Shown: piece after piece, positions 16,480 to 40,021 of the stretch
Position numbering within the stretch: the stretch's first letter is position 1
How the letters are laid out: every line of letters starts with the position of its first letter
IMG/VR virus record: IMGVR_UViG_3300036766_000032
Coordinates: 11,897 to 75,896 of that record
Origin: a virus
Length of the DNA: 64,000 nt
Direction: 5' to 3' (one strand)
The notes under the pieces: model-generated
The model's database searches: none
Told to the model about the DNA's origin: nothing
Seen by the model: the letters and a program-made list of their open reading frames with translations, nothing else
Made by a program: the position numbers and the translations under genes

Positions 16480-17097
16480 CTAAGTTAACATCCGTTGCCA
16501 CTCTAACGTGACGGCCCCGTTGCGAGCAGCCAGAGTCACATTAACTCCGTCCGACCAAAGAAACCCCATTCGCAAAGGGGAGCCAGATTCCACCCACACC
16601 CCTGAAAAATTCAGTCGTAGACGCACACCAGACCCAGAGGTGGCAAAGTTGTACCATCCTGGAGCATCCGCGACCCATCCGGTATTATTTGGCATGTACA
16701 GACTTCCTACAGTTCCGGAGGACTTGTCTACGTCTCCACCGACGAACCCGATCCCATCCTGAATGCCCGTATATGGGATCACAGCTCCATCTCCCCCGTC
16801 GTGATTGTGACTGTACCCGTTGGTCACCATCTTTGACGAAACATCAGTCGCAAGAGTTGCAGCCGTGACGCTTCCCAATGCGAACTTCTCGTCCGTAGCG
16901 GCTTGATCTCTAACGGTTGCCGCCGTCACCGCCTGAACTCCCGATCCTTGATCCAGTGCTGCTGCCTGGATCCGTGGCGCTGTCGCACCACCGTCAGAGA
17001 TCGCCAGAGGATTGTCCCGAAGCGCCACGAGCAGCGCAGACGTGATCGGGCTGCGCGGGTCAATGTCGGTCTCAATGATCGTTGTGAATGCAGTCAT
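16480..17097 (-). CDS. Short tail fibre / receptor-binding paralog 3
   Basis: Shared N-terminus MT.FTTI...SP...L.DNP.AI.(D/E)G...APR and NG.SH.H.GGDG. Confidence 0.7.
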   Translation of the reverse strand: MTAFTTIIETDIDPRSPITSALLVALRDNPLAISDGGATAPRIQAAALDQGSGVQAVTAATVRDQAATDEKFALGSVTAATLATDVSSKMVTNGYSHNHDGGDGAVIPYTGIQDGIGFVGGDVDKSSGTVGSLYMPNNTGWVADAPGWYNFATSGSGVRLRLNFSGVWVESGSPLRMGFLWSDGVNVTLAARNGAVTLEWQRMLT

Positions 17098-17101
17098 GAG
17101 C

Positions 17102-17731
17102 CTAGCCTATGGTGTAATAGTAAATGTAACGGGTGTCGCCGGACGTGTTGTAGATCCGTTGATTTTCTCCATCGTAAATGAGACTGACGCATAGTTGTGA
17201 ACTTGAAATTGATGCTACGCGCCACCCCCACGAGAAAGTGTACAGCTCCAACCTTAGTAAATTATTTGGATCTAGAAGCATGATCAATCCCGGTGGGATG
17301 GCGTCCTGCGGTAAGTAGTCATTCCCTCCGATTGTGGTCACGCCCGCATGTCCTACCCCCTTGTAGATCTTCGCATTCCGGATAGTGTTAGCTAGAATGG
17401 AGGTCGTGTTTACCTGTCCTCCATCTCCTCCGGCGTGGTCATGACTGCTACCATTAGTGACCAGACCTGCGGAGATCGCTGCCGACACTTTGGCTAGCGA
17501 CACGGCGAGTGCGCCAATCTTCGCAGTCGTAATGTCCGCATTGCGAATGTTCGCAGTCGCGACCGCCTGCGCACTCGCTACCTGATTCAGCGCCGCCGTC
17601 TGGAAGCGGGGAGCTCCCGCAGCGCCTTCTGCAATCGCGAGCGGGTTGTCACGGAGTCGCTTCTTCAACGAGTACACAATAGGACTCTCTGCGTCTACTT
17701 CCGTGCTTGCGATGGTTGTGAATATGGTCAT
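17102..17731 (-). CDS. Short tail fibre / receptor-binding paralog 2
   Basis: Same N-terminal module and HxH motif. Confidence 0.7.
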   Translation of the reverse strand: MTIFTTIASTEVDAESPIVYSLKKRLRDNPLAIAEGAAGAPRFQTAALNQVASAQAVATANIRNADITTAKIGALAVSLAKVSAAISAGLVTNGSSHDHAGGDGGQVNTTSILANTIRNAKIYKGVGHAGVTTIGGNDYLPQDAIPPGLIMLLDPNNLLRLELYTFSWGWRVASISSSQLCVSLIYDGENQRIYNTSGDTRYIYYYTIG

Positions 17732-18394
17732 CTAGTAGTCCCACTTCTGGTAATAGACATACCTGGTCGGTCCGGTAAAGTTATTGTTGTACACGTACGT
17801 GTAGAGTCCATCGAACCAGAATAGACCATTGGTCCACGCATTTATAGAGCTGAACGGTTGTCCTGGAAAGATCATAATCAGCACTACATTATCACTGACC
17901 GTGTTCCAATCCATAACGATGTTGTAGAATCCTTGTGCGGGGGTATATGCGGTGTTGGGTGGCAGGGTCCACCGACCGTTAATAACATTACCGTTCCGGT
18001 CCTGCATCAAATTAGGGTAGACCTTCGCTCCTCGAAACGCGTCCGCTGCGAAAGCTGCGTTTCCCAGCGGATCCCCACCACCCGCTCCTAGATATGATGC
18101 ATGATTGTGTGCGTCCCCGTTAGGAACCAGTTTCTGCTGTCCCGATGCGTCCAGCTTGTTCACGGCGAGCGTAGCGTTCGAGATCTTGGCAGTGGTGAAG
18201 CACCCGTCGCGCATAGTCGCCGTTGTCACCGCTGCGCTCGCTCCCGTCTGAAGCCCTCCCGACAACACCTTCGGCGCGCCTGCCGCGCCCTCCGTCATCG
18301 CGATCGGATTGTTCGCGAGTCGTTGATAGAGCGACTCCTTCAGACAGGACTCCGGGGACACTTCCGAATCTGAAATAGTTGTGTAGGCGGTCAT
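17732..18394 (-). CDS. Short tail fibre / receptor-binding paralog 1
   Basis: Same N-terminal module and HxH motif. Confidence 0.7.
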   Translation of the reverse strand: MTAYTTISDSEVSPESCLKESLYQRLANNPIAMTEGAAGAPKVLSGGLQTGASAAVTTATMRDGCFTTAKISNATLAVNKLDASGQQKLVPNGDAHNHASYLGAGGGDPLGNAAFAADAFRGAKVYPNLMQDRNGNVINGRWTLPPNTAYTPAQGFYNIVMDWNTVSDNVVLIMIFPGQPFSSINAWTNGLFWFDGLYTYVYNNNFTGPTRYVYYQKWDY

Positions 18395-24517: not shown

Positions 24518-25942
24518 TTAAACAATTATGTCTGCGCACGCTAATCCATACCAAGGGAAAGAAGTGAGCGGTGTGAGACTTCCCGTGATGTCAGTGAACG
24601 TATTCCCATTATTAGTGGACCGAATCGTTTCTCCATTGAAGAACCGGATCACCCAAACCCCCCCCCTGTCGCACGCTACAGCAACGGGTAGATTGATCCC
24701 AGCCAGTGGGTAGAGGGGAACCGTTCCGGGGACACTACTCCCGATGTTCGTCCACGCACCCAATCCCACCTTCCTGACAATGACGAACGCGTCAACGGCT
24801 TCAGTCACGGCCCCGACGACGATCCACGTGTCTGTGGATACGCAGTAGTCCAACGACTGAAATTCAAATCCCAGTGTCCCGAGTCCTCCTCCCCAGAAAT
24901 CTCCGGCTGCGACGTAGTCCAGCGCATACGTTGCCCCATCATCGTCCGACCTCCAAATGGTAGCCCATCCAGCCACTGCATAAGTCACACCATTAGCGCT
25001 CAAGACGTCGGGGATAGTCAGGCCCCCGGGATATGGGAGAAAGAATGAGTTCTGACTCCACGAGTTACCGAAGTTGTCCGTGTAGTAAATGCCGTAGTCT
25101 GAACCAACAACCACTCTTCCGGTGTCCGTTCTAGCCAACCCGAACAGATCATAGAGAGCATCCGTACTAGTGAAGTTCGCCGAGATGTCCGTCCATGTGA
25201 GACCGTCATCGAGTGAGCGGGCTACGTACCCCGCAACGCTAACTATGAGCCACGAACCGAACCCGTTCGAGATCACGCTACTGACATACGCCGCCCCCGG
25301 TATCGCCGGAACTGCGATCATCGCCCACGTAATCCCTCCGTCCGTGGATCGAGCGACGAAGTTTCCCGCAGTGCCCGCGAGCCACGTTCCAGTGACCGGA
25401 TCTCGGTAGGGAATTCTACCGTTGAATGTGGGTCCACCGGGACCAGCTTGAAGAGTCCACGCCAATCCATTAGTTGATCTGTCTATCCGGTCAAAGTTCA
25501 ACGCAATCCATTCTTGTGTGTAAGCGACGCCCGGAATGGGGCCGGAGCGCGCGAATATAGACATCTGGGAACTGACTAACGCGAGCGTCCATCCCTCTTC
25601 GGCGACGTGCTCGCCCGGCTTCTCGATCGTAGCGACGAAGAAGTATCCGCTAACTACGTCCCCGTTCTCGAACATAACCCTGAACTCACCCCCCACGCCC
25701 GACATCGATAGCTCCTCGATGTACTTCTGCGCGGCTGCATTCTTAAACACGGCCGCTCCACTGATACTAAGCTGACGCGCTCCAGCGTCACTCAGCAAGT
25801 CCCGCCAAGGTGCCTCGTCACTGGAGGTGGTATCGACAGTATCGTTGTCCACGACGATGGTGCGGGTTCGTATACCGGCGATCGTGGTGTATACCCCGCC
25901 GAGTAAGACCTTTACCAACACGTTTCGTCCCTTTGCGGCCAT
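24518..25942 (-). CDS. Tail tube protein paralog fused to an Asp-box (BNR) beta-propeller
   Basis: First ~135 aa paralogous to 28242-28655; several RS.D.G.TW repeats. Confidence 0.85.
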   Translation of the reverse strand: MAAKGRNVLVKVLLGGVYTTIAGIRTRTIVVDNDTVDTTSSDEAPWRDLLSDAGARQLSISGAAVFKNAAAQKYIEELSMSGVGGEFRVMFENGDVVSGYFFVATIEKPGEHVAEEGWTLALVSSQMSIFARSGPIPGVAYTQEWIALNFDRIDRSTNGLAWTLQAGPGGPTFNGRIPYRDPVTGTWLAGTAGNFVARSTDGGITWAMIAVPAIPGAAYVSSVISNGFGSWLIVSVAGYVARSLDDGLTWTDISANFTSTDALYDLFGLARTDTGRVVVGSDYGIYYTDNFGNSWSQNSFFLPYPGGLTIPDVLSANGVTYAVAGWATIWRSDDDGATYALDYVAAGDFWGGGLGTLGFEFQSLDYCVSTDTWIVVGAVTEAVDAFVIVRKVGLGAWTNIGSSVPGTVPLYPLAGINLPVAVACDRGGVWVIRFFNGETIRSTNNGNTFTDITGSLTPLTSFPWYGLACADIIV

Positions 25943-25996
25943 CGTCAATCCTGTAGAGTCTTAAATGAAACACGTGGTTTGTTTGCCACCTGTTGA

Positions 25997-28237
25997 TTAA
26001 GCCATTGCATCTACAAACCCAAGCCCACCGATACCGCTCACCAACGGTGGGTTTAAAAGCGTCGACCATGTCGATCCGTTATCCAGCGAATCCATGACAT
26101 ATAAGTCAAACCCAATCGCCCATCTTCCGTTCCCGAATTTCATGGTATACGCATGATCTATGCTCACTCCCGGTGTGATTTCGAACCACGTTAAACCATC
26201 ATCGGTCGATTTCAGTATGAACAGTTCCCCACCCGCTTCGGCATGATTTCCAACAATCATCATCACGCCGGCATCGTTCGAAATGCCGCTTACAGTCGTT
26301 CCTGTATTTACAGTTCCGATCAATGTCCATGTCGACCCTTGATCCACTGATCGCCAAACGTCCGAACCTGTCGTCCCTGAAACGCAAATGATTATTCCGG
26401 TCGCGATGTTGTGAATTAAAGTTCCACCTCCACTGTTCGCCCAACCAACAGGGGTGACATTGACCCAGTTGAATCCGCCGTTTGTTGACTTATTCAAATA
26501 GGCAGTATTCCCCAGCGAAACATAATTGCCTGCCTGACCCGCAACGACGCCGACAATGTCTTCACTCGATATCGTCGGTCCTAAGCAGGGGGTCCATGTG
26601 AACCCCTCATCTACAGACACGACCGCTGCGACGCCGCCATATCCGACGATGACGATATCAGTCCCACGATGTCCGGCGATGTGGAATGTTCCATTCGGAA
26701 GATTTCCACCTTTCGAAATAATCGACCATCCAGTCTCACCTTTCCTGTGTGTGGTCGAATAGACGATTCTTTGTTCCCACACAACAAGCCAGCGGGTTCC
26801 TGTCCAGTACGGATCGAGTAAAATCGTGACCGGACTATCCGGGCTATACGTCAGGGATGATCGATTGCCGACACCCATCTGCGCGTTCAGTGTCCATGTG
26901 CCGCCATCATCGTCCGATGTGACCGTGTTGTAATTGTCATCGGTGAACGCGAAATATCCGTCCCCGTAAACAAGAGTCTGCACGTTGCCAAGCGCGACTG
27001 ATGCTCCCAAATCAGTCCACGTCAGCCCGTTATCGTCTGACACCCATGTTCGCAAGTTCGTACCGCTGTCAACTCCGACGACTACAGCGCGGGAGCCGGG
27101 CTTGAACGCAACCTTTATGGGACTCTGGGTCGGCGAAAGAACTATCGCCCAAGTCGCGCCGCTATCTGTCGAACGAAAAACTGAAACGCTGTTACACGCG
27201 AGGAAGGTTCCGGTTATCGGGTCTACCGCTACGCCGCCACGTGACACCGTGCCCCATAATGAAGGGGTGACTACCGTCCAAGTCGCTCCAGCAACCGAAC
27301 GGATCACGCGCCCCTTACACGCGGCAACCCAATAAGACGCCCCACGCGCGAAGCCGAATATGCCGGTGTGATTCAATGATACCGACGATGCCAACCATGA
27401 TTCACCTTCGTCGTCGGAATAGTAAATTGCCTTTGCGGTTTCACCGCCTGAATAATAATTTCCGGCGACTATGCGTCCATTCACCGGATCGTACCCAAGC
27501 GCCCCGAACGAATAGCCTGCGCTCCCCAACGTTTGCCCGTTCCATCCCCAGAAATCAGCCCCTGCCTTATCGCTGGTCTTAATCACACCTCTAAAGATGT
27601 CGACTACAACCCAATTATTCCCCGTCCATATCGCATTGGCATCGGTTTCAGCCGCGCCGCTGTGATAGAACGTGGTCGGATCAAAGCCATATGCTCCATT
27701 GTACTCATCTGCCTGTGTCACGCCTGACGACATCAACACCCACGCCGCCGTAGTCAGTTGATAGAACGCGCTCCACCCATCAAAGTAAGCCGTCCAATCG
27801 ACTTCCCCCGCATAGCCGATCAACAGCCAATTGGAGTACCGTGTGAGCGTCACCGGTCCTGTGCTCGACATCGCGAAGTCAAAGTTCTGTGTGTCCCCGA
27901 CGCCTCCTGTATTCGACATGGACGTAACCCGGAAGCTGCCGTCGATGGTGTCGCCATTGCCGAATAAGATTCGGAACACTCCGCTGCGCAACCCCCACGC
28001 TAGGTCTTCCATGTGCTGCGTAGTCACTCCGGTCTTGTACGCACCAGACCCGGAGATGGAACACGATCGGAGTCCGTAGCCGCCTTGCTTCAACTGCCGC
28101 CAGTCTCCGGACTCCGAGTTCGTGATGTCCACTGTATCCCCGCCGATCGAGAACGACTTCGAGCGGACAGCGGCGACCGTAACGTACTGGCCGCTGATGT
28201 ACGCCTTAAGAAGAAAGTCTCGGCTGCGAAAAGCCAT
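25997..28237 (-). CDS. Tail tube protein paralog fused to a long Asp-box (BNR) repeat region
   Basis: Tube domain VDIT..ESG.WRQL...G.RS.SISGSG; about ten S.D.G.TW boxes. Confidence 0.85.
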   Translation of the reverse strand: MAFRSRDFLLKAYISGQYVTVAAVRSKSFSIGGDTVDITNSESGDWRQLKQGGYGLRSCSISGSGAYKTGVTTQHMEDLAWGLRSGVFRILFGNGDTIDGSFRVTSMSNTGGVGDTQNFDFAMSSTGPVTLTRYSNWLLIGYAGEVDWTAYFDGWSAFYQLTTAAWVLMSSGVTQADEYNGAYGFDPTTFYHSGAAETDANAIWTGNNWVVVDIFRGVIKTSDKAGADFWGWNGQTLGSAGYSFGALGYDPVNGRIVAGNYYSGGETAKAIYYSDDEGESWLASSVSLNHTGIFGFARGASYWVAACKGRVIRSVAGATWTVVTPSLWGTVSRGGVAVDPITGTFLACNSVSVFRSTDSGATWAIVLSPTQSPIKVAFKPGSRAVVVGVDSGTNLRTWVSDDNGLTWTDLGASVALGNVQTLVYGDGYFAFTDDNYNTVTSDDDGGTWTLNAQMGVGNRSSLTYSPDSPVTILLDPYWTGTRWLVVWEQRIVYSTTHRKGETGWSIISKGGNLPNGTFHIAGHRGTDIVIVGYGGVAAVVSVDEGFTWTPCLGPTISSEDIVGVVAGQAGNYVSLGNTAYLNKSTNGGFNWVNVTPVGWANSGGGTLIHNIATGIIICVSGTTGSDVWRSVDQGSTWTLIGTVNTGTTVSGISNDAGVMMIVGNHAEAGGELFILKSTDDGLTWFEITPGVSIDHAYTMKFGNGRWAIGFDLYVMDSLDNGSTWSTLLNPPLVSGIGGLGFVDAMA

Positions 28238-28241
28238 TTAA

Positions 28242-28655
28242 CTACGCTCGCATCAACGTTGCGATTCCTGCGCTCTCCATACTGACGGAGTAGGTCTGCT
28301 CTGAAGTGTGCTCACCCGCGTATTCAAACGAGGTTACCTGGAACAGCCCCTGAATGATGTCGCCGTTGCCGAACACCACTTGGAACTCCTCAATCAATCC
28401 ACTGAATGCCAAGTTCTCAACGGTGTTGATCGCAGCCTCGTCCTTGAAGACGCCGGAGCCGCTTAGTGACACCGAGCGCAAGCCCGTGTCACTCATCAAC
28501 TGACGCCACGGAGCGTTGTCACTGTCTGTGATGTCCACCGAATCGTTGTTGATGCTGATCGTACGCGACCGGATACCTCCGAGCGTGCTAAATGTTTGCG
28601 GGGAAACTCCATTGCCTATCTTCAAAAGTATACTGCGTCCTTTCTGAGCGGTCAA
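28242..28655 (-). CDS. Major tail tube protein (TP901-1/GTA family)
   Basis: AQKGR..LLK, VDIT.SD...WR.L...G.RS.S.SGSGVF.D, F..T..EY.G......Y....ESAG. Confidence 0.92.
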   Translation of the reverse strand: MTAQKGRSILLKIGNGVSPQTFSTLGGIRSRTISINNDSVDITDSDNAPWRQLMSDTGLRSVSLSGSGVFKDEAAINTVENLAFSGLIEEFQVVFGNGDIIQGLFQVTSFEYAGEHTSEQTYSVSMESAGIATLMRA

Positions 28656-28672: not shown

Positions 28673-29332
28673 TTAGTCGAATATGAAAACTCGGTCAGCC
28701 CGCATTCGCAGAACCTCCCGAGCGCCTAGTGATACTAGATACTTCTCTACTGCGTCGTCCAGATATCCGAACCGCGCACCGTAGCCCTGCTTCACTTCTA
28801 CAATCACCATCGGGTGACAGGTTTTGATCATATACTCCGCGCCCTTCAACGCGAGCAGTTCCGCTCCTTCTATGTCCAGCTTCAACAGATCGACGTCCTG
28901 GATGTTTAAGTCATCGAGTCGGTTAACTGCCAGCGCGCCGCTCCCATTGACGTTCATCCGTATGTACTTCGAACCGGTGTTCCCATCCGCTTGGTGGCGC
29001 CGGTCCCATCCTATGGACGCTGTTCCGTTGACGTCACTCAGGGCGGATTCGCGGGTAGTGATGTTCGAACAGCCCCGCTCACGGATGTTGGCTACCAGAC
29101 AGTCGAACGTCTCGCGGATGGGCTCAAAGGCGTACACGCGCTCGAATGATGCTGCCATGCTGACCGCCCACGTGCCGATGTGAGCTCCGCCGTCGATCGC
29201 CGTGCGGAAGTTGTTACAGAACGAAAGCGCTTGCGCTAGTCGGTCGAGTTGGAACCCTTCCGGGTCTGTCGCCAGAAACGCTTCAAAGTAATTATCGTCG
29301 TCTGGCAAGTTCCATCCATGAATCAGTCGCAT
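28673..29332 (-). CDS. FkbM family methyltransferase
   Basis: IDGGAHIG.W, AFEP, LKLDIEGAE. Confidence 0.9.
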   Translation of the reverse strand: MRLIHGWNLPDDDNYFEAFLATDPEGFQLDRLAQALSFCNNFRTAIDGGAHIGTWAVSMAASFERVYAFEPIRETFDCLVANIRERGCSNITTRESALSDVNGTASIGWDRRHQADGNTGSKYIRMNVNGSGALAVNRLDDLNIQDVDLLKLDIEGAELLALKGAEYMIKTCHPMVIVEVKQGYGARFGYLDDAVEKYLVSLGAREVLRMRADRVFIFD

Positions 29333-30099
29333 GCGATATCTCCTCCAGGGAGTTCCGGTGATCGTCCCATACCCTTTCGATTCCCCTTCAGGTGGTCCAT
29401 GTAGGTCGCCAGCGGGGACGTGATCCAGACATGCCCGTGTAACGCACGGGACAGGTTATTGGACTTTATGCGATAGCGGCTGCGCACCACGTCGAACACG
29501 AACGAGTCGTGCCACTCCGGCAGATCGAACACGGTGCCGTTAACATAGGTGTCTGCGAAGTCAGTTACGAAGTCGCGCACATCTGAGTTGCTGAGGTCGT
29601 AGCCCACGAAGCCGCACTCGCTATGCGTGCCCTTCCTGCCGAGGTGACACATTTGATAGCCCTCCGGGATGAGCTCGTCCAGGAATTCAGCAGGCATCGG
29701 CCTTAGCGCAACGACGTCCGAGTCGACCCAGAACAGCCGACGTTCTTTAAAGCGCAGCGACGCGTCGAATATGGCGAACACTTTACGGCAAAACTTGTTA
29801 GCGTCGAAGCGGAAGTTGTACCCGACGTCTATCTCCTTCGTCTTCCACTTACCGATGCACGAGTCCTTTCCAAACACGATCGGCGCGCGGTACTTCGCAA
29901 CGAACTTTCTGTAGTAAGGAATGTCTTCTATCTCGAATACGGAGCCTGCGTCAATGCCCGGCACTTCGACCTTGTCTTCACGATAAACTACCAAGTCAAT
30001 CTCATCGAGCGGCCAGTGCTTCTGCACGGACGTCATAAAGCGGCGCCCATACTGCTCGTAGCCCTTGGCGCTGAAGCTTGTCACCACGAGAGGTTTCAC
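29323..30099 (-). CDS. GT-A fold glycosyltransferase
   Basis: KF..KVFAI, WVDSD (DxD), ECGF, EWHDS, DHLKG. Confidence 0.75.
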   Translation of the reverse strand: MKPLVVTSFSAKGYEQYGRRFMTSVQKHWPLDEIDLVVYREDKVEVPGIDAGSVFEIEDIPYYRKFVAKYRAPIVFGKDSCIGKWKTKEIDVGYNFRFDANKFCRKVFAIFDASLRFKERRLFWVDSDVVALRPMPAEFLDELIPEGYQMCHLGRKGTHSECGFVGYDLSNSDVRDFVTDFADTYVNGTVFDLPEWHDSFVFDVVRSRYRIKSNNLSRALHGHVWITSPLATYMDHLKGNRKGMGRSPELPGGDIACD

Positions 30100-30620
30100 T
30101 CACCGTCCTCCGTGAAGGACAGTCTGTACGAGGTGTCTTTGGCGCTACGCCCCGCTGCCTCGCGGACGCGCTGCTGCCACCATGCGCGCTCCCGTATCGT
30201 GACATGACAGTCGCGCCCGTCTGGCAGAGTCTTGTGTGACGGCGACGTGGAGACGCCCAAGAACACGAAGCGAGTAGCGAGTGAGAATACCGCGTCCAGC
30301 GTTGCGGCGACCTCTTCCTCAGGGACGTGCTCCATTACATCATTACAAATCACTCCGTCAAATGGTCCGTCGGGCAGAGTGCTCATGCCCATGACGCCGG
30401 GATCATAGCAGTGCGGCAATATGCCACCCCACAGCATGTGATAGCGCCGGACGAGGTACTGATGCCCGCGCCCGCACCCGTAGTCGAGAAGCGTCTCCGC
30501 CTCCGTGACACGTACGAGCTCTGCGATCTCAGTCAAGTGTCGCTTGATAGAATGCCCGTGGAACCTCTTCGGGTTCGCGTGCATCTGCTGATATTGCTTA
30601 GCTAGCGATTCCATGATCAC
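30096..30620 (-). CDS. Class I SAM-dependent methyltransferase
   Basis: LLDYGCGRG, YDPG, DVMEHVP. Confidence 0.88.
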   Translation of the reverse strand: MIMESLAKQYQQMHANPKRFHGHSIKRHLTEIAELVRVTEAETLLDYGCGRGHQYLVRRYHMLWGGILPHCYDPGVMGMSTLPDGPFDGVICNDVMEHVPEEEVAATLDAVFSLATRFVFLGVSTSPSHKTLPDGRDCHVTIRERAWWQQRVREAAGRSAKDTSYRLSFTEDGE

Positions 30621-31252
30621 CTCACATCACTGCGAACGGTAGAGAGGAAATAGTCAGGCTTCTCCAGATCAACTACTCTGTACCCAAGCTCTCTCAGATA
30701 CGCGAGAGACGTCATCTGTGCTGCGTTCATTCTTTTCTGAACCAGCCAGATAGCCGGGCGCGCCGAGATGATCAACTCGCGCGCGCCCTTCAGCACCTCC
30801 AACTCGGCGCCATTGGTATGTATCTTTAGCAGGTCTACGTTCTTGAGTTGCTCATCGTCTAAGCGCACACAAGGCACGTCGCCATCCACACTGGCGCCGC
30901 CAGCTTGCGACCCGATCCGGCCTTTCGCTCCGACCGAGAAGTGCACCAGCCCATTGACGGTCCCGCATGCTGTGTTCTTTACAACCACGTTCTTAAGAGG
31001 GCGGGTGTTCATCAAGAGCGCTTCGAAGCTCAGCGGGTCCGGCTCGTACGCAACGACGCGCTCGAACAGCCCCGCCAGCTCAGTAGTCACCGTGCCGACG
31101 AACGCCCCGATGTCTACTGCGGTGCGCCATGCGCGGCACACCTTCCGCAACCGTCCTGTCCTCCCCATCCGGTAGCCAACCTCCGCTTCGCGTAGCGTCT
31201 TCGTGCGTATTCCTGCATCCGACGGGTAGTACCAAGTGCCTATCTGAATCAT
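30617..31252 (-). CDS. FkbM family methyltransferase (variant KIHTNG in place of KIDVEG)
   Basis: VDIGAFVG, AYEP, RLDD. Confidence 0.8.
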   Translation of the reverse strand: MIQIGTWYYPSDAGIRTKTLREAEVGYRMGRTGRLRKVCRAWRTAVDIGAFVGTVTTELAGLFERVVAYEPDPLSFEALLMNTRPLKNVVVKNTACGTVNGLVHFSVGAKGRIGSQAGGASVDGDVPCVRLDDEQLKNVDLLKIHTNGAELEVLKGARELIISARPAIWLVQKRMNAAQMTSLAYLRELGYRVVDLEKPDYFLSTVRSDVR

Positions 31253-31965
31253 GGAATTGACCGTAACAGGTGCATGTTATTCTCTTCCGGTGTTGATCCA
31301 TCTACCATCTTACGCGCCTCAGCTATCCACTGGTCCGTGTACCCACTCTTCGCCCACTGCTTCCACCACGGACCCCCTAGGGTGTAGTGTACATTAGCTG
31401 GATCACTGAGCGGTGGTTCTACATCCACTAGATGGTTCCACTTGGCGGGAAGCTCTCCTATCTCTTCATCCGCCAACCAACGGAGCTTTCGCAAGTAGTC
31501 CGCTGGAACGGCGTTCACCAGTTCCGGCGTCAGCACCTTACACCGCGCACAGTTGAAAATCATAAAGCTGGTCCAATTCTTTCGTTCATACTTCGTCTGC
31601 GCCTGTCCCAGCATCTTGGTCTCTTCCACCGGACGCTGGTCATGCTTCACGACCTGTACGGAATATGCCTTGCTGCGCAACGACCAGAGTTCCTCGACGT
31701 CGTCCAGGATCAACATATCGCAATCCATGAAGAGCGCGAACCCTTGGTAGTTCATCAGATATGGAACGAGGAACCGAGTGAAGCTGAACTCGGTCGATTG
31801 CACATCGTTAGAACGGCCTTCGAAAACGCTACGGAGCTGCCGCTTAATGAGCGGGTGAATCGTCACCGGGAAACTCGCCCGTGTCATCAGGCTGTCCACC
31901 GCCACGTGGAAGGCCAAGGATTCCGAAGAATCGTATCCAATGAAGACATCAATAGGAGACATCAC
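31249..31965 (-). CDS. GT8/CDI-like glycosyltransferase
   Basis: FIGYD, STEFSFTRFLVP, FMDCDM, RKNW, HYT.GGPW. Confidence 0.85.
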   Translation of the reverse strand: MMSPIDVFIGYDSSESLAFHVAVDSLMTRASFPVTIHPLIKRQLRSVFEGRSNDVQSTEFSFTRFLVPYLMNYQGFALFMDCDMLILDDVEELWSLRSKAYSVQVVKHDQRPVEETKMLGQAQTKYERKNWTSFMIFNCARCKVLTPELVNAVPADYLRKLRWLADEEIGELPAKWNHLVDVEPPLSDPANVHYTLGGPWWKQWAKSGYTDQWIAEARKMVDGSTPEENNMHLLRSIP

Positions 31966-32783
31966 AGCGCCCTCCCCGGCTTCAGCCGTTCCCAGACCAG
32001 TCCGGATGCGATCTCCTCAAGCGTCCACTGCGAGTAGGCCAGATTGAACGCCCACTGTTCGCGGTCCGGCATTCGCGGCTCAGCTATACGATTCAGATCA
32101 CTCTCAGCCACTGGCCACGCGATCGAGCCCTGATCCATCGCAATGACCGGGATGCCCTTCAGCACCGCCAGCCCCGCACTGGTTGAGTTCCACGTCACGA
32201 CGGCCCAAGCAAAGTCCAGGTCGTCAGCGTACGACCGTACTGAGAACTGAGTTCCAGGTATCTTGGGTGTCTCGTGCACGGCTAGAGGATGAGGTCGGAA
32301 CACGACGGGGCGATCCGTCAGCTTCTGTATCGCATACGCAGTAGAGACGCACCACTCAACGATGTTGATATTCCGCACCGACCCGTCCCAAGGAACTTGC
32401 CCGATCAGTAGGACGTGATCTCCGTTGCTGCGCCACGGCTCGATCTCAATACCAAAGTCGTACCAACGGTCAGCCGGACTGCACTCATTCATGAAATCAG
32501 CGTTCCCCATGATGTCATCCCAGCCGACTGTCCAGTGGCTGAAGCCGTCCCCGAGGACTCCATAGTCCAGGAACAGCGCGCGCCCGCCTTCCCGCTCTAC
32601 GTGTTCGATGATCCAAGGGTGCGCGACAGAGGAGTAACCGAACACGACACCCACGTCGCAGTTAGTCGGCTTGTCGCGTATGTCCGCGATGCGGTAAGAC
32701 TCGCCATTAGCCGCGAGTCCTTTCGCAAACGCCATCAAGAGTTTGTGCTGAATCTTGTCCCCGGTGGTGAAGATGGTGATCAT
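31962..32783 (-). CDS. KpsC/KpsS-like (GT107-type) glycosyltransferase paralog 4
   Basis: GQVPWD, FRPHP, VVTWNS....A...GIPV. Confidence 0.75.
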   Translation of the reverse strand: MITIFTTGDKIQHKLLMAFAKGLAANGESYRIADIRDKPTNCDVGVVFGYSSVAHPWIIEHVEREGGRALFLDYGVLGDGFSHWTVGWDDIMGNADFMNECSPADRWYDFGIEIEPWRSNGDHVLLIGQVPWDGSVRNINIVEWCVSTAYAIQKLTDRPVVFRPHPLAVHETPKIPGTQFSVRSYADDLDFAWAVVTWNSTSAGLAVLKGIPVIAMDQGSIAWPVAESDLNRIAEPRMPDREQWAFNLAYSQWTLEEIASGLVWERLKPGRAL

Positions 32784-33646
32784 ACGAACCTCCTTACAAA
32801 GCGCCACATGGCGCCGCTCGCCAGCTCCGGAATGGTCCACTGCCACCAGCAGATGTTAGCGATCCACTTTTCCCGGTCTGCCTCACTTGGAACATATAGG
32901 GAGTTAATCATATCTAAACCCCGACTGGAAATCGGTCTAGCAATGCTTGGTCCCAGGGAGATAACAGGCACTCCGTCCAGCGCCGCTTCTACACACGAAT
33001 TGCTGTTGTGAACTATGAACACGCGAGCATCCGCCAATATGGAAGACAGGGTCTCAGGAGGAGTAGAGAATCTGGAACCCTTTACGGGGGCCGCCCCTCC
33101 CCAACTCTGCTTCGGACGATAGATTATCGGAGCGTCAGTCAGTTCAGTAATGGAGTCGATGACCAGATTCGCGTACTCCGTTGCGTCCCCTAATCCATGA
33201 AATTCCGCGTTCTTCTGCGAGGGACCGGCATACACCACGTTCAGTCCACATTTGCGAATGGGATGTATCATCTTCCCGAATGTTTCTTTGATTCGCTCCC
33301 ACCTATCCGCTGGTCGGGCATCCGTCATCAAGTAAGTCAGAGGTTGAAACCCATTCAAGCTGACCTTTACATATTCCATCGAGATACCATCCTCTATGGT
33401 GGACGGAAGGCGCAAGTAGCCCTTGTCCACGTACAGCACGATCTTTCCAGCAGCTCGATATTCTTCGATCACTTGACGAGTTCTTCCAACGACTCCTCTA
33501 GTAACCGCAACGTCGACTCCTGGCTCAATCCCAGCGTACTTGTCCCGAAACGAGACACGTACACCCTCCGCAGCAAACCCGCTAGCAATGGCTCCTAGCA
33601 CGACGTGATCAAAGCCTTTGTCAGACATGTAGATTGCCACTTTCAC
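32780..33646 (-). CDS. KpsC/KpsS-like glycosyltransferase paralog 3
   Basis: DKGY, YRPK, HNSN..VEA...GVPV, QW...E..SG. Confidence 0.65.
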   Translation of the reverse strand: MKVAIYMSDKGFDHVVLGAIASGFAAEGVRVSFRDKYAGIEPGVDVAVTRGVVGRTRQVIEEYRAAGKIVLYVDKGYLRLPSTIEDGISMEYVKVSLNGFQPLTYLMTDARPADRWERIKETFGKMIHPIRKCGLNVVYAGPSQKNAEFHGLGDATEYANLVIDSITELTDAPIIYRPKQSWGGAAPVKGSRFSTPPETLSSILADARVFIVHNSNSCVEAALDGVPVISLGPSIARPISSRGLDMINSLYVPSEADREKWIANICWWQWTIPELASGAMWRFVRRFV

Positions 33647-34476
33647 AAATGCTCCTCCAAGAACGACTGGAAGATACCGCGCCGCATCTCATAGACGTTC
33701 CACTGACAACACGCAACCTTCTCGAGAAAGTTCTCCACAGCTTGTACGTCCGGGCGTAGCGGAGTTTCTATCTTGTCCAGGGGACGGCTGAATCTCATCG
33801 CGATGCCGTCATCCAAGAACACCGGGACTCCGCACTCCAGAGCCTTGATAGAAGCGTTCGAGTGATGGGACACCAGTGCCCACGCACCGGGCAGCACCGC
33901 CTCTAGTTCCCCGTCATGGTACTGCGTTCCGTCGATGGGTTGCCGGTCGTCGAACGTGTGCTTTGGAACGTACACGATCTTCCTGTCCGTGTGAAGCCGC
34001 AGCGTTTCGATCGTTTCCGTTTCCCACTGCTCCGGTGCGAATCCATAGACCTTTGCCGCCTTGGCGGACTGCCCTTGCAGGACGATGTGACCCTTCCCAG
34101 TCACGGAGAAGTCCTTCAGTCGGGAAGCGAATTTCCGATATCGGCCCTTGGGGACTATCCGATCGAAGTTCGGAGTGCCGTGCAGACCGTCCACGGCGAA
34201 TCGGTGATAGCCAGTCAATCGCCCACCCTCGGTCCTTCCCCAGTAGCCAAGATCAAGAAGCACCGTCCGGCGTCCTGCGGTCATGTACGCCTTGCGAATT
34301 TCGTTAAGTCTGCCGTGTAACCCGTAGAAGATCGCTACGTCGTGGTCAGGGACGGCGAATCCGCCGTGATATATCGCGCTCGGCGAAATATGAATGTGCG
34401 GATAGCCGCCTGTCACGGCTGAGCACAGCATCCGGGAGCGCTGCTTATCATCGTAATAGAAGGCGACTGTCTTCAC
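33643..34476 (-). CDS. KpsC/KpsS-like glycosyltransferase paralog 2
   Basis: DLGY, TDR.IV..PK, HHSN....A...GVPV, QW...E...G. Confidence 0.65.
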   Translation of the reverse strand: MKTVAFYYDDKQRSRMLCSAVTGGYPHIHISPSAIYHGGFAVPDHDVAIFYGLHGRLNEIRKAYMTAGRRTVLLDLGYWGRTEGGRLTGYHRFAVDGLHGTPNFDRIVPKGRYRKFASRLKDFSVTGKGHIVLQGQSAKAAKVYGFAPEQWETETIETLRLHTDRKIVYVPKHTFDDRQPIDGTQYHDGELEAVLPGAWALVSHHSNASIKALECGVPVFLDDGIAMRFSRPLDKIETPLRPDVQAVENFLEKVACCQWNVYEMRRGIFQSFLEEHL

Positions 34477-35315
34477 TGGAGCAGCCTCCGGAACGGCTCA
34501 CCAGACTCAAGTTCTGCAACGGACCACTGCGAGTCGGCGACGTGCTCCAGGAAGTCTTCTCGGTCTTCCGGATAGTACGGAGACTCAATGGAGTCGATAG
34601 AGTGCATCGCCATGCGCCGCGCGATGCTGTACGGACCAATTACGAACACTGGTACACCGTGGATCAAAGCGAGCATAGCGGCCTTGGAGCTCCACGTCAC
34701 CAGCGCCCAACAGTCTGCAAGGAGCTGCGGAATGGGCGCTCGGTCGATCCGCACGCCGTCCCCTGTGGTATAGGGGTCTTTGCTCCCAGGCTTCGGGTGA
34801 ATGAGGATCGGGCGATCCGTACGGTGACGAAGTTCCGTATGAATTGATTCAAGCCATTTAACAGGCATAGACACCGTGGTGTCCCGATGCCCCATCTGGC
34901 CAACAACAAGAATGTGACTGCCCGTCTTCCTCCATGGCTTGATCTCGTGCCCGAGGGCGGCGAAGCGCTCTCGGTTATCGGAGCCGTGGTCCCCCCTCCC
35001 GTTGTAGCCTTCCCGCCCTACCGTGTAGACCTTCCTACCGTCTACAGGAGTCACATACCCGTTTTCCATGACGAGCCACGAACCTCCACCAGCGGCGTGC
35101 CCCTTTCCGAGCTTCTCGGCTAGAGAGCCACGCCACGGAGTCCACGTCACCAGCGCGCATTCGGGTCGGCGGTCGAACATGTTGGTTCGTCTTAGACCCA
35201 TGACAGTCATACCCTTGTCGATGCTCGCGTGGGGATACGGGTCTACCCTCCGAACCATGTTAAAGAAAGAGGTCGCGGAGGTCATGTGTGGGGGCCTACG
35301 ATGCGAAGAATGCAT
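34473..35315 (-). CDS. KpsC/KpsS-like glycosyltransferase paralog 1
   Basis: ENGY, PWR..G.HILV.GQ, HPKP, VTWSS, QW...E..SG. Confidence 0.65.
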   Translation of the reverse strand: MHSSHRRPPHMTSATSFFNMVRRVDPYPHASIDKGMTVMGLRRTNMFDRRPECALVTWTPWRGSLAEKLGKGHAAGGGSWLVMENGYVTPVDGRKVYTVGREGYNGRGDHGSDNRERFAALGHEIKPWRKTGSHILVVGQMGHRDTTVSMPVKWLESIHTELRHRTDRPILIHPKPGSKDPYTTGDGVRIDRAPIPQLLADCWALVTWSSKAAMLALIHGVPVFVIGPYSIARRMAMHSIDSIESPYYPEDREDFLEHVADSQWSVAELESGEPFRRLLQ

Positions 35316-35393
35316 GTACCTAGAGCCGGAGGAATAGCTCGCAGATTTCCGGATTTTAGAAGCTCACGTGTGTTCTCTTCACGCTGATGGACT

Positions 35394-35948
35394 CTAGCAA
35401 AATTCATCTATCGTCTCTTTTCTAAAGCACTCAAGGGCTGAGTCTGGGTTAGCGTTCACGATGTCTATTCCCAGTTCCTTAAGAGGTTCGACCAGCGTGG
35501 GGAAGAAGGCGATCATCTTCTCTATACGCCCGGACCGCACCGGATAGCCGTCATGCCAATGCGTCCGGTCCGTGTACTTCATGTCATAGCCTAGCAGAAC
35601 GATCTTGCTTGGCTTCATCTGAGCCGCCAAGTTGATCGCTGCGAATCCGCTAGAATTGCCGGTGCGTAGCTGTCCAGGAATCAAGTCTAGCCCAAATGTC
35701 CCGGTGGCTCTGTAGTTAATCACGTCCTTGTCCTTAACCTGTCTGTCCACGGTGATCTTTATCCCTGCGTGGAGGCGGAGCGCCCCCGCGTACCAGTTCC
35801 AGAACCGCGCATCGCTGAAGTATACGTACTCGGCGCATGGGACGACCTCAAACGCACGGTTGACGGCGATGACGAACTGCCCCTTCAGCACGCGCCAATC
35901 GAACCCCACCAATGAAGGGCCACCACCGACACAGAAGATGGTCTTCAT
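35394..35948 (-). CDS. Maf/DUF115/CstII-like (sialyltransferase-type fold) protein
   Basis: VGGGPSL, IAVN, D..FW, NSSG..A..LA, IVLLGYDM. Confidence 0.7.
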   Translation of the reverse strand: MKTIFCVGGGPSLVGFDWRVLKGQFVIAVNRAFEVVPCAEYVYFSDARFWNWYAGALRLHAGIKITVDRQVKDKDVINYRATGTFGLDLIPGQLRTGNSSGFAAINLAAQMKPSKIVLLGYDMKYTDRTHWHDGYPVRSGRIEKMIAFFPTLVEPLKELGIDIVNANPDSALECFRKETIDEFC

Positions 35949-36328
35949 ACGCGCACCCGAAGCGTCTTGAAGTTTAGTGACAGCTTCGGGCGATAATTTG
36001 CATCGTACCCTAACGGAGTCGGTCCGCTGCTCACGTAGACGAACGTGGAGTTTGGCAGGGCGGAGTCGTTAAGCGCTGCGAACACTCCGTCTAGCTTGGT
36101 CCGAGCATCTTCATACCTGTACGCCGCTGCGCGGACCTGTATCTGAAACGTTATCTCATCCACCCGCGTACCTTCCGTCTGGTCCGCTGGTTCGCCCCCC
36201 GTCTCTGTTACGGCTACCGCTTGATCCGGATCGGGAGGTAGGTAGCCGAGGAATAGCGTCCAGCCGGTTACACCGCCGACGACTCCCGCATTGACCAGAA
36301 CAGTTTGAATGTCCGTCAGGAGACTCAC
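35945..36328 (-). CDS. Tail terminator
   Basis: F.G..P..PD..V...ETGG, QIQVRA, LG.D.N.R; synteny. Confidence 0.8.
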   Translation of the reverse strand: MSLLTDIQTVLVNAGVVGGVTGWTLFLGYLPPDPDQAVAVTETGGEPADQTEGTRVDEITFQIQVRAAAYRYEDARTKLDGVFAALNDSALPNSTFVYVSSGPTPLGYDANYRPKLSLNFKTLRVRV

Positions 36329-39064: not shown

Positions 39065-40021
39065 TTACGCCACCGCGCCGCTGAAGAAGTAGCCTGCGTC
39101 CGTCATGACCACTTTCTGATCATAAGAGAACTCGCCTTCCACGCGGTCCGACTCCAGGTGTTCCATACGGAAGCGCTTAACACGCACGCCACCATTGGCA
39201 CCTGAGAACTTCGACCATGTGAACGAGTATCCTGCCGACGGAACCATCAGCCCAGGACTTGGCGCTACGAAGCACAACAGCGCATGCTTGCCAAGTACGA
39301 ACGCGTCGACGTCGGTCGCAGCGAGCTCTTCGCTCGTCGTGTAAGACGCTTGTGCTACGATGTACCGATCCACTTCGAAGAAGCGCGCCAATAACGCCGT
39401 AGTGATCGCATCCGACGTGGTGTGCTTGTACCGATCGGTTATGATCGGATGACGTTTCAAAGCTTGATGCACATCGTACCCGACCACGAGAGTGTTCGGA
39501 TTCAGACCGAGAGCCTTGCGGATCTTGGTCTTGCCAGCGTCGATGTCTGCTTCCGGGTCGGATCCACCGTCATCCCAAAGTGCGAAGTCGGTGCTGCCGG
39601 TCTTATCCGTTCCCCACACGCTGGTGGTGAAATACTTAGTTCCCCAGTTGACTTCTTTCTGGATCAGCATCTGCTGAGTGATGAACTCAGTGGCGCTGCG
39701 ATCCATGTCCAACGAAGGGTCCGCGTTGTTACGGATCTGGTCCGGAACGTCGTGGTGGAACGCGTATACCTCCGCTTTGTAAGTGTCAGTGTCCACGTTG
39801 AAGCCGCTACCGGCGGATTCAGCGCCAGGAGCACGAGGGCGCGCGTTGTTACGACGGAAGTCCCGGCTGCGATACTTGAAATAAGAATCGGACTGGAACT
39901 CCACGGGAACTGCCGGAAATACTTGCGTCGCGACGAAGTCGGATGCACTCTGAATAGCAGCGACAGCAATGTTAGTCAGTGAACGTACGACGTGCACGTC
40001 ACCTCGTGTGGGTTGCGGCAT
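39065..40021 (-). CDS. Major capsid protein (lambda gpE-like HK97 fold)
   Basis: LTN...A......FVA..VFP.VPV, PN.LV.G..V...L..HP; synteny. Confidence 0.92.
   Translation of the reverse strand: MPQPTRGDVHVVRSLTNIAVAAIQSASDFVATQVFPAVPVEFQSDSYFKYRSRDFRRNNARPRAPGAESAGSGFNVDTDTYKAEVYAFHHDVPDQIRNNADPSLDMDRSATEFITQQMLIQKEVNWGTKYFTTSVWGTDKTGSTDFALWDDGGSDPEADIDAGKTKIRKALGLNPNTLVVGYDVHQALKRHPIITDRYKHTTSDAITTALLARFFEVDRYIVAQASYTTSEELAATDVDAFVLGKHALLCFVAPSPGLMVPSAGYSFTWSKFSGANGGVRVKRFRMEHLESDRVEGEFSYDQKVVMTDAGYFFSGAVA

Follow-up and report, generated by a model that had tools for sequence, protein, structure and literature searches.

A putative glycan-assembly cassette within the neck-tail operon of an uncultured phage: a candidate pathway for virion glycosylation

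The bacterial Maf family is named for flagellin glycosylation with CMP-nonulosonic acids. Maf proteins (MptE-like, PF01973) and the GT42 sialyltransferase CstII both use CMP-activated nonulosonic acids, and the protein that Maf modifies builds a helical polymer. For the known KpsC, WbbB and GT8 enzymes, the acceptors are lipid-linked glycans and not proteins. Among phages, glycosylation of mycobacteriophage capsids and tail tubes has been described (Freeman 2023, as cited in PMC12363180 and PMC12619734). In Che8-type mycobacteriophages the glycosyltransferase genes are found close to the right end of the genome, outside the structural operon (PMC11256854), so that an initial sequence-only reading of the DNA studied here, which invoked mycobacteriophages as a precedent for glycosyltransferases of structural operons, overstated the case.

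The complete 76-kb (75.9-kb) genome of an uncultured phage, of which a 64,000-nt stretch (the window) was analysed, carries a glycosylation and methylation cassette of ten minus-strand ORFs that fills positions 28673-35948. Upstream is the gene of a 127-aa tail terminator or head-tail connector (35945..36328, minus strand; phrog_2595, 7.8e-14), and downstream that of the 137-aa major tail (tube) protein (28242..28655, minus strand; phrog_1407, 1.2e-25), followed by two longer tube paralogs at 25997-28237 and 24518-25948. The placement and gene number given by the sequence-only reading are thus confirmed, as is its view that the genes are mostly translationally coupled inside the morphogenesis operon. 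At eight of the ten junctions the genes overlap by 4 nt, among them the one where the first cassette gene starts within the end of the terminator gene; the remaining two are a 10-nt overlap and a 78-nt gap, and 17 nt separate the end of the cassette from the tube gene. We found no convincing internal promoter or terminator within the cassette. The genes are real: for every one of them tens to thousands of homologues were found, and synteny is conserved.

The first cassette gene (35394..35948, minus strand; phrog_4603, 6.6e-35) encodes a compact, 184-aa CstII/Maf-like (GT42-like, MptE-like) putative CMP-ulosonic-acid transferase. Its score against Pfam MptE-like is 24.3 bits, under the cut-off of 34.6; its profile (A3) matches the PDB entries of CstII (2drj/1ro8) at 1.3e-4, over an alignment that takes in the GGGPSL motif. 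An AF2 model (pLDDT 95.7) has CstII and Maf (5mu5) as its best Foldseek matches, with a TMq of 0.66, and these results bear out the original Maf/CstII call. The protein consists of the nucleotide-binding core only, and the fold search also returned pyrophosphokinases. Homologues carry the annotation 'structural protein' in the PAJU2 and Eowyn records.

Four KpsC-like paralogs with pairwise identities of 24-32% follow, all on the minus strand. Paralog 4 (280 aa, 34473..35315) has the variant motifs GQMGHRD and IHPKP and weak Pfam matches to DUF6716 and Capsule_synth; its orthogroup (tree support 100/99) comes after the Maf-like gene in several phage lineages. Paralogs 3 (277 aa, 33643..34476) and 2 (288 aa, 32780..33646) lack the catalytic Asp and the HP motif, and each belongs to an orthogroup with support of 100/98. 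Paralog 1 (273 aa, 31962..32783), the start of which was placed at Met22 of a 294-aa ORF according to a called homologue (P0001), is the only one of the four with both QVPWD (Q129, D133) and RPHP (H165, P166), and alignment A6 shows invariant residues. The paralog family profile (A2) matches KpsC (6mgc) at 3.5e-5, and the alignment brings the QxxxD and HP motifs of the two into register. All top Foldseek matches of the paralog 1 model (AF2, pLDDT 95) are retaining beta-Kdo transferases, namely KpsC, WbbB and KrkA, with E values of 3e-8 to 5e-6. Profile, folds and motifs therefore uphold the description of four KpsC/KpsS-like paralogs, one with intact motifs, and make paralog 1 the best candidate for an active retaining beta-Kdo transferase. 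The canonical catalytic Asp is missing in the other three and in all KpsC-like proteins of three sister loci (L013-L015). Judged by the tree, the paralog orthogroups are ancient and have travelled together across lineages, as would be expected for a multi-step pathway.

A 238-aa protein (31249..31965, minus strand; phrog_28018, 4.4e-48) with a DxD motif (FMDCDM) and HYTLGGPW is probably a GT8-like GT-A glycosyltransferase. It falls just short of the Pfam GT8 cut-off (6.3e-5; 23.1 against 24.3 bits), and its profile (alignment A5) gives a weak PDB match to GT8 (5gvv) around the DxD. A second GT-A enzyme had been proposed, and here the proposal stands less well. The 258-aa protein in question (29323..30099, minus strand) has an invariant W-x-D-x-D (alignment A4) but matched nothing in Pfam, PHROG, NCBIfam or the PDB; its 268 homologues include none with a family name or Pfam domain, and hhalign found no significant similarity between its profile and the GT8-like one, leaving it a possible GT-A protein of a family without a name. 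The three predicted methyltransferases were all recovered by profile matches. Two, with PF05050 scores of 57 and 48 bits and TIGR01444 scores of 83 and 72 bits, are FkbM-family SAM methyltransferases: one of 211 aa (30617..31252, minus strand; PF05050, 2.6e-12; TIGR01444, 9.2e-20; phrog_8156) and one of 219 aa encoded by the last cassette gene (28673..29332, minus strand; PF05050, 3e-15; TIGR01444, 2.8e-23). The third is a 174-aa class I SAM methyltransferase (30096..30620, minus strand; Methyltransf_23, 4.6e-6; phrog_24759, 1.9e-21), homologous to the methyltransferases of the CcrColossus and PAJU2 modules described below (30% identity to CcrColossus gp130, E 1e-14). Nucleotide-binding and DxD motifs are invariant over hundreds of homologues.

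Profile searches of the complete 75.9-kb genome found no PF02348, NeuB, KdsA, NTP_transferase or Epimerase, nor any other gene for CMP- or NDP-sugar synthesis, no exporter or ABC transporter scoring over cut-off, and no integrase or resolvase; none of the ten cassette proteins has a membrane segment. These results agree with the earlier statement that synthesis and export genes are lacking and support reliance on host donors. They also place manufacture of the product in the cytoplasm of a lytically infected cell, which is the site of virion assembly. No mucin-like Ser/Thr-rich tract occurs in any real gene of the window, so the fibre and tube proteins, once offered as Ser/Thr-rich candidate acceptors, are not singled out.

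Three related contigs (L013, L014 and L015) carry a cassette at the same terminator-tube position. Terminator orthologues stand ahead of it in L013 and L015, tube orthologues 76% and 61% identical follow it in L013 and L014, and the coat protein of L015 is 62% identical. Cassette content varies among the three, and the opening, Maf-like then KpsC4-type, is constant. A cassette of this kind is absent from the more distant KPP23, whose coat protein is 47% identical. The core order (Maf-like, KpsC4/KpsC3-type paralogs, GT8-like, methyltransferase) is portable and turns up again in further phage groups, within late or structural modules. Maf-like and KpsC-like genes lie between portal and neck genes in a prophage of a Rhodobacterales MAG (L033), directly 3' of the coat gene in a second prophage (L037), between the coat gene and a tail protein gene in L023, and beside a head-morphogenesis gene in L003. 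Among cultured phages, the Caulobacter phage CcrColossus has a collinear core (gp126-130) immediately past the tail protein gp125; Pseudomonas phages PAJU2 and D14C carry a Maf-like gene, a 275-aa unknown and a methyltransferase inside the neck genes; a short Maf-like set is likewise present in Pseudomonas phage D3; and in P1 the Maf-like gene, PmgO, is situated downstream of the late promoter LPpmgL. In T4-like marine phages, including Pelagibacter phage Mosig, the KpsC-like/GT8-like/258-aa/FkbM part lies among recombination, nucleotide-metabolism and replication genes, with a fatty-acid desaturase, a pyruvyl transferase, GT25 and a sulfotransferase as neighbours. The Maf-like gene is present in the modules with a structural context and absent from those with a replication context. 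Chromosomal homologues occur in Alphaproteobacteria and Planctomycetes. Coupling to neck and tail genes was found in at least six lineages, and since the adjoining structural gene differs from lineage to lineage, adjacency singles out no acceptor. The same-position relatives and the recurrence in other phage groups, cultured ones included, are new here and strengthen the earlier interpretation. As that interpretation had stated, no published characterised case of such a cassette was found in the literature searched.

We propose a model, with a probability of roughly 0.5, in which the cassette, expressed late, builds a glycan in the cytoplasm and attaches it to one or more virion proteins of the phage itself during particle assembly, drawing on host CMP-Kdo or similar donors; the decoration would probably be an acidic, methylated sugar chain. 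The acceptor, the donor sugars, the order of steps, the targets of methylation and the place of the product on the virion are what we infer. The compact CstII/Maf-like enzyme would prime the virion protein with a host CMP-activated ulosonic acid, either CMP-Kdo, to our knowledge the sole CMP-ulosonic donor common to all Gram-negative hosts, or a nonulosonic acid where the host has one. The KpsC-like proteins would then lengthen the chain, paralog 1 as a canonical retaining beta-Kdo transferase and paralogs 2-4, each an old and conserved orthogroup despite a lost or shifted catalytic Asp/His, through a changed chemistry or as partners that do not catalyse. Neutral sugars from host UDP-sugars may be added by the GT8-like enzyme and possibly also by the 258-aa DxD protein, and the two FkbM and one class I methyltransferases may O-methylate the glycan.

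Operon position, the same position in relatives, recurrence in structural modules, the family link of the Maf-like protein, production in the cytoplasm of a lytically infected cell and the joint inheritance of the paralog orthogroups all count for decoration of the virion, as does, by analogy, the mycobacteriophage precedent. Against it stand the absence of a Ser/Thr-rich acceptor, the replication context in T4-like phages, the three KpsC-like paralogs without the canonical Asp, a Maf-like protein reduced to a core that resembles pyrophosphokinases, and the fact that a glycan on these virions is predicted from genes alone. The lipid-linked substrates of the known relatives likewise count against it, and with KpsC, WbbB and KrkA, the closest solved enzymes, all using lipid-linked acceptors, they raise a real though unlikely alternative, in which a glycoconjugate of the host envelope is remodelled by the module on the cytoplasmic side of the inner membrane. 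The target could be lipid A-core, an O-antigen or capsule linked to undecaprenyl, or a KpsC-type Kdo-glycolipid; a receptor capped, truncated or altered late in infection could let progeny escape debris or block superinfection. Enzymes of the GT8, GT25 and FkbM families are typically found in LPS and O-antigen synthesis, and both the chromosomal homologues and the neighbours of the T4-like modules would fit. However, the cassette proteins have no membrane segment, the genome shows no flippase or exporter, the coupling to neck and tail genes recurs across lineages, and so late an expression leaves little time for surface export; lysogenic conversion is unlikely because the phage has no integrase or resolvase.

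It is quite unlikely that the target is instead a host protein such as flagellin or pilin, a phage non-structural protein or a small molecule, or that the cassette is largely catalytically dead and its paralogs serve as assembly chaperones or structural proteins. The missing nucleophiles, the 'structural protein' labels and the pyrophosphokinase-like fold would suit such a role, but the invariant motifs and the conservation of every paralog orthogroup across lineages argue against dead enzymes, and methyltransferases consistently occur together with glycosyltransferases, in keeping with a working glycan pathway. Glycosylation of phage DNA, for example on a hypermodified cytosine possibly made by the separate modification operon of this genome, seems very improbable. 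P1 and D3 have Maf-like homologues, and neither is known to have glycosylated DNA. About 21 kb separate the cassette from the DNA-modification operon, which is on the other strand, and the cassette belongs to the late structural operon; ten enzymes with three methyltransferases exceed any known DNA glycan pathway. The T4-like modules do sit among DNA-metabolism genes, and metagenomic phage enzymes can place Kdo and up to trisaccharides on 5hmC, but the Kdo-DNA transferase described there resembles T4 beta-GT rather than KpsC (bioRxiv 10.1101/2023.12.21.572611).

Paralog 1 has the same fold as KpsC/KpsS (GT107), the N-terminal module of WbbB (GT99) and KrkA, its QxxxD and HP align with KpsC, and its likely donor is CMP-Kdo, as for beta-Kdo transferases. 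The phage proteins differ: each is one compact domain of about 270 aa not covered by Pfam PF05159, and three of the four have no catalytic Asp and His. Unlike KpsC systems, these soluble proteins come from a phage structural operon that has no KpsMTED export genes, and their acceptor is probably other than lyso-phosphatidylglycerol. The Maf-like protein shares the nucleotide-binding core and GxGPSL motif with CstII and Maf but has neither the lid of CstII nor the large flanking domains of Maf and scores under the Pfam cut-off, and its function is putative.

CcrColossus gp126-gp131 include collinear homologues of the Maf-like, KpsC4-type, KpsC-like, GT8-like and class I methyltransferase genes, and these, like PAJU2 gp10-12, D3 orf7 and P1 PmgO, lie in late or structural regions, as here; their annotations are only hypothetical, 'alpha-2,3-sialyltransferase' or 'putative morphogenetic function'. 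The gene sets are not identical: CcrColossus has an extra GT9, PAJU2 a different 275-aa partner and P1 the Maf-like gene alone. The T4 alpha/beta-GT and 5hmC glycan clusters (Pyle et al.) also pair phage transferases with host sugar nucleotides, Kdo being among the sugars added, but those transferases adopt folds that are beta-GT-like or different again, and their genes are grouped with those for cytosine methyltransferase/dioxygenase, whereas the present enzymes are KpsC/CstII-like and belong to a morphogenesis operon. Mycobacteriophage O-glycosylation involves other enzyme families and other hosts, and its glycans have been seen by mass spectrometry whereas that of this phage is a prediction. 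In Che8, Corndog and Myrna, phage glycosyltransferases modify capsid or tail-tube subunits in the cytoplasm with host donors, which is the logic we propose here.

We propose that the ten-gene cassette glycosylates virion proteins during assembly, a reading to which we give a probability of about 0.5. The viral contig is complete (75,896 bp with direct terminal repeats, the window being its bases 11897-75896) and comes from a sediment metagenome, the only source among sequencing runs in which DNA of this phage is present; no RNA sequencing run containing phage sequence is listed. Its coat protein shares 47% identity with those of Pseudomonas phages RSP/KPP23 and 44% with that of Roseobacter phage RDJL Phi 1. 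The late operon runs along the minus strand from the coat gene (39065-40021) through small head and neck genes to a head-tail connector/terminator gene (35945-36328, phrog_2595). The cassette follows directly, from 35948 down to 28673, and leads into the major tail protein gene (28242-28655, phrog_1407), two longer tube paralogs, a chaperone gene, the tape measure gene, and tip and fibre genes, all on the same strand.

The cassette is tightly woven into this operon. The terminator gene and the first cassette gene overlap by 4 nt, seven more 4-nt overlaps and one 10-nt overlap occur within the cassette, a 78-nt gap lies behind its first gene, and 17 nt separate its last gene from the tube gene. 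Its GC content is that of the remaining genome, and a scan of the cassette for promoter and terminator consensus sequences gave nothing convincing internally, the number of sites not exceeding that in shuffled sequence. The same position is occupied in three related viral contigs. One of them (L013) has the order terminator, Maf-like gene, four KpsC-like genes, GT8-like gene, 258-aa family, FkbM gene and tube gene (76% identical), and the others (L014 and L015) have shortened versions; KPP23 has no such cassette. Tight coupling to neck and tail genes, together with a position kept across a diverged clade, argues for virion modification. A blastn search of the cassette against GenBank phages gave zero matches, and a conserved-pattern search for the Maf-like protein in viral contigs returned pattern matches alone, with no relative confirmed; in the broad KpsC alignment, conservation was too low throughout for a search of this kind. 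The nearest relative is a 45.9-kb contig encoding P0002, P0048 and P0313.

Behind the first cassette gene lie four KpsC-like genes, mutual paralogs of 24-32% identity. Paralog 1 (31962-32783), the fourth in operon order, has homologues that begin at Met22 of its open reading frame. Its profile, built from 39 sequences, matches E. coli KpsC at 3.5e-5, and HMMER aligns its QVPWD with the QTFND of KpsC, the QxxxD motif that holds the nucleophile Asp; Q129 and D133 are invariant in the family alignment (A6). Its RPHP aligns with VHP, the HP motif of KpsC, so that one paralog has both motifs intact, as the sequence-only reading had claimed. The AlphaFold2 model (pLDDT 95) has the two-domain fold of KpsC and WbbB, and the best 20-plus Foldseek matches in the PDB are all retaining beta-Kdo transferases (KpsC, WbbB and KrkA; E 3e-8 to 5e-6, TMq 0.47-0.61). 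Paralog 1 does not match the Pfam family Capsule_synth (PF05159); paralog 4 (34473-35315) alone gives a match, whose 16.1 bits fall short of the cut-off of 20.

The nucleophile Asp is absent from paralogs 2 (32780-33646) and 3 (33643-34476), and paralog 4 has a shifted GQMGHRD. The HP of paralog 4 lies two residues away from the usual position, where paralogs 2 and 3 read RPKQ and VPKH. In a maximum-likelihood tree the four paralogs fall into four orthogroups with 98-100% ultrafast bootstrap, each spread across several phage lineages, and the gene order Maf-like, C4, C3, C2 is conserved across lineages. These well-supported orthogroups and their conserved order indicate that the paralogs with missing or shifted catalytic residues are old, maintained components and not decaying copies. 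The KpsC-like family comprises 7,593 representative clusters, has no Pfam model and includes several members in the giant Tetraselmis virus 1. Such a large family, with conserved paralogs that lack the nucleophile, should be of interest to glycosyltransferase enzymology.

The first cassette gene (35394-35948) encodes a protein of 184 aa that matches phrog_4603 at 6.6e-35. It scores 24.3 bits against Pfam MptE-like (PF01973), below the gathering cut-off of 34.6, and many close homologues carry a precomputed PF01973 match. Residues 8-13, GGGPSL, form the N-terminal GxGPSL motif of the CstII/Maf nucleotide-binding fold; a profile of 48 sequences finds CstII sialyltransferases in the PDB at 1.3e-4, with this motif aligned. 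Foldseek with the AlphaFold2 model (pLDDT 95.7) ranks CstII first (7.6e-4) and gives the highest query coverage to the Maf flagellin glycosyltransferase 5mu5 (TMq 0.66). His130, nearly invariant in the family, may correspond to His188, the catalytic His of CstII. Unlike CstII and Maf, the phage protein is the nucleotide-binding core alone, without the lid of CstII or the domains that flank the core in Maf. The model points to a likely glycosyltransferase; we stop at likely because the protein is core-only and its matches also include pyrophosphokinases, which share the fold.

Of the two GT-A enzymes proposed by the sequence-only reading, one is probable. In the GT8-like protein (31249-31965) the DxD and HYTLGGPW (H-x-x-G-x-x-P-W) motifs are invariant in the family alignment (A5), the score against Pfam GT8 (PF01501) is 23.1 bits, just below the cut-off of 24.3, and the best PDB match is a GT8 enzyme, 5gvv, at a weak E of 0.12. 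The second candidate, the 258-aa protein (29323-30099), is a member of a fairly large, unnamed family in which WxDxD is invariant, and has zero matches in Pfam, PHROG, NCBIfam and the PDB; profile-profile comparison of its family with the GT8-like family is not significant, with the DxD strand alone aligning. All three methyltransferases that had been proposed are present. Two are FkbM enzymes (28673-29332 and 30617-31252), scoring 57.2 and 47.7 bits against PF05050 (cut-off 22.7) and 83 and 71.6 bits against TIGR01444 (cut-off 37.7), and beside them is one clear class I enzyme (30096-30620).

None of the ten cassette proteins has a membrane segment. Family searches of the complete genome found no CMP-sugar synthetase, NeuB or KdsA, no nucleotidyltransferase or epimerase families and zero ABC transporters above cut-off, which extends to the whole genome the earlier claim that genes for sugar-nucleotide synthesis and export are lacking. 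Sugar donors would thus come from the host, and the product would be made without an exporter. Paralog 1 would likely use host CMP-Kdo; the Maf-like enzyme may take either this donor or a nonulosonic acid of the host, the GT8-like enzyme would use a UDP-hexose, and the methyltransferases would tailor the sugars. The same genome holds no tyrosine or serine recombinase families (integrase or resolvase), so the phage is probably virulent, and we rejected lysogenic conversion as the main reading on this ground.

Related modules recur among structural genes elsewhere. When bacterial genomes were searched, the cassette core appeared in two prophages of differing architecture in alphaproteobacterial MAGs. 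One (L033) runs terminase, protease-coat fusion, portal, Maf-like gene, KpsC4-type gene, 258-aa family, KpsC3-type gene, neck, terminator and tape measure; in the other (L037) the cassette lies immediately behind the coat gene. In one further locus (L023) a KpsC1-type gene and a Maf-like gene are flanked by the coat gene and a tail protein gene, and in another (L003) they adjoin a head-morphogenesis gene. In Caulobacter phage CcrColossus, gp126-gp130 encode, in order, a Maf-like protein (7e-56 against the profile), a KpsC4-type protein, a KpsC-like protein, a GT8-like protein (4e-56) and, at 30% identity to its counterpart in the window, a class I methyltransferase; they directly follow the 1,665-aa tail protein gp125 and precede the lysis genes. 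Both proteins searched by profile, Maf-like and GT8-like, occur in twelve more Caulobacter jumbo-phage records. A Maf-like gene also lies among the neck genes of Pseudomonas phages PAJU2, D14C and D3; in PAJU2 and D14C the next genes encode an unknown 275-aa protein and a Methyltransf_23 enzyme. P1 PmgO (AF234172.1; 4444-5106 of locus L050), downstream of the late promoter LPpmgL, is of the same compact Maf-like family, and PAJU2 gp10, D3 orf7 and P1 pmgO share phrog_4603 with the first cassette gene. In a Manatee Spring podovirus (MW202713.1; 2165-6581 of locus L046), an unannotated KpsC1-type gene lies directly upstream of the large terminase gene, with an annotated TibC-type glycosyltransferase, a methyltransferase and a DegT-type sugar aminotransferase as neighbours.

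P1 pmgO is described as a 'putative morphogenetic function', and CcrColossus gp126, D3 orf7 and PmgO are named by homology or by placeholder. The searchable literature yielded no study of what this module does in any phage (a search for pmgO gave unrelated material), in keeping with the earlier statement that no characterised case was known in a proteobacterial siphovirus.

KpsC-like modules also occur outside structural genes. Seven viral loci carry several KpsC-like genes each, some adding a GT8-like gene, the 258-aa family or an FkbM gene, and the Maf-like gene is found in 0 of the 7. In one (L005) the module lies between SSB/UvsX/UvsY and the helicase and primase genes and adjoins a fatty-acid desaturase gene and GT25; in another (L004) it adds a polysaccharide pyruvyl transferase. 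These accompanying genes lie at 9052-9933 (minus strand) in the former locus and at 7211-8128 (plus strand) in the latter; the desaturase family gene matches PF00487 at 7.9e-16. In Pelagibacter phage Mosig, which is cultured, a comparable set lies amid RNR and RuvC genes, and chromosomal homologues occur in Alphaproteobacteria and Planctomycetes. Those of Mesorhizobium and an alphaproteobacterial MAG, considered as a clue, were uninformative, lying beside sulfotransferase, TamAB and transporter genes. The replication-context, chromosomal and giant-virus homologues indicate that the glycan-building enzymes are portable and not intrinsically tied to virions.

Ser/Thr-rich fibre and tube proteins had been named as candidate acceptors, a suggestion that finds no support here: within the window such tracts occur in no real gene, the sole matches being out-of-frame or antisense open reading frames. 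As the structural gene flanking the module also varies between lineages, sequence singles out no acceptor. The tail genes have features of their own. Three major-tail-protein paralogs in a row (137, 746 and 476 aa; 24518-28655, minus strand) all match phrog_1407 at their N-termini, and the two long ones have C-terminal extensions rich in S-x-D-x-G-x-T-W (Asp-box) repeats in the style of sialidase-like beta-propellers; extensions and cassette are separable, since L013 has the cassette and a short tube gene alone. Three tandem paralogs of ~205-220 aa (16480-18394, minus strand), between the tail-tip protein (771 aa) and a fibre-like protein of 272 aa, share the N-terminal segment MT.(F/Y)TTI..(T/S)E(I/V)...SP(I/C), diverge in their C-terminal halves and may be alternative receptor-binding tips. 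The fibre-like protein (15473-16291, minus strand) has four internal repeats of ~30 aa, (T/S)S(A/T)TGG(I/L)..(V/Q)TV..AL.EL.DEI, and a C-terminal part that is moderately Ser/Thr-rich, not mucin-like. The tape measure (21497-23905, minus strand) has, close to its C-terminus, a long Gly-rich run of 13 Gly in a row and then Gly with Ala/Arg, which produces a spurious poly-Pro open reading frame on the opposite strand.

Several targets other than the virion have to be weighed. Remodelling of a lipid-linked host glycan draws on the T4-like modules in replication contexts, whose neighbours include a fatty-acid desaturase, GT25 and a pyruvyl transferase; the desaturase and pyruvyl transferase hint that the module may serve a lipid or envelope glycan in that lineage. 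For the present cassette, we regard such a role as unlikely; the versions with a Maf-like gene, met repeatedly within the late or structural modules of six lineages or more, speak for virion modification, as do soluble enzymes with neither exporter nor integrase. The Maf family has a role in protein glycosylation, which favours the same reading. A non-virion target, or proteins that are largely non-catalytic, seems more improbable still. DNA glycosylation is the least probable of these alternatives, and we hold it to be a slim prospect: Kdo can be added to phage DNA (bioRxiv 10.1101/2023.12.21.572611), but the published transferase is T4 beta-GT-like and encoded beside base-modifying genes, whereas the cassette folds are KpsC-like and CstII-like and lie ~21 kb from the cytosine-modification operon of this genome (607-7784, plus strand, early region), on the opposite strand.

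Beyond this phage, it is tempting to speculate, more tentatively than for virion glycosylation in the cassette itself, that Gram-negative phages share a widespread and so far unrecognised system. A minimal Maf/CstII-like enzyme would take a CMP-ulosonic acid from the host (Kdo or nonulosonic acid) and prime structural proteins with it, and the ancient KpsC-like paralogs, GT-A enzymes and methyltransferases would then build an acidic, O-methylated coat glycan. The system would travel between unrelated phages as a cassette, and would be present in cultured Caulobacter phages (CcrColossus and its relatives) and, in a pared-down version, in Pseudomonas D3/PAJU2 and possibly in P1. The main value of the finding is that it can be tested at the bench now, since Caulobacter phages available in culture carry the core and Pseudomonas phages available in culture carry reduced Maf-like sets. 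If borne out, it would give the KpsC-like and Maf-like families a protein-directed role and would matter for how stable phages are, how they adsorb and how hosts and grazers recognise them, as well as for the immunogenicity of phages used in therapy.

The phage enzymes resemble KpsC/WbbB/KrkA and CstII/Maf, but most fall outside these families when membership is defined strictly, 0 cassette proteins reaching the Pfam cut-offs for the KpsC-type and CstII/Maf families. Phage DNA glycosylation clusters differ from the cassette, which is not grouped with base-hydroxylating enzymes and whose modelled folds are not beta-GT-like. To our knowledge, virion glycosylation by phage enzymes is established for a few mycobacteriophages only and, among large eukaryotic viruses, for chloroviruses. 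The mycobacteriophage systems are the closest in working, although the cassette enzymes are unrelated to theirs, the donor class is different and the case here is one of genomic context. If the cassette does coat virions of proteobacterial phages with a methylated glycan of Kdo type, these phages would have a second, mechanistically different route to a glycosylated virion, one that relies on CMP-ulosonic acids as donors and on enzymes of the KpsC-like and Maf-like families.
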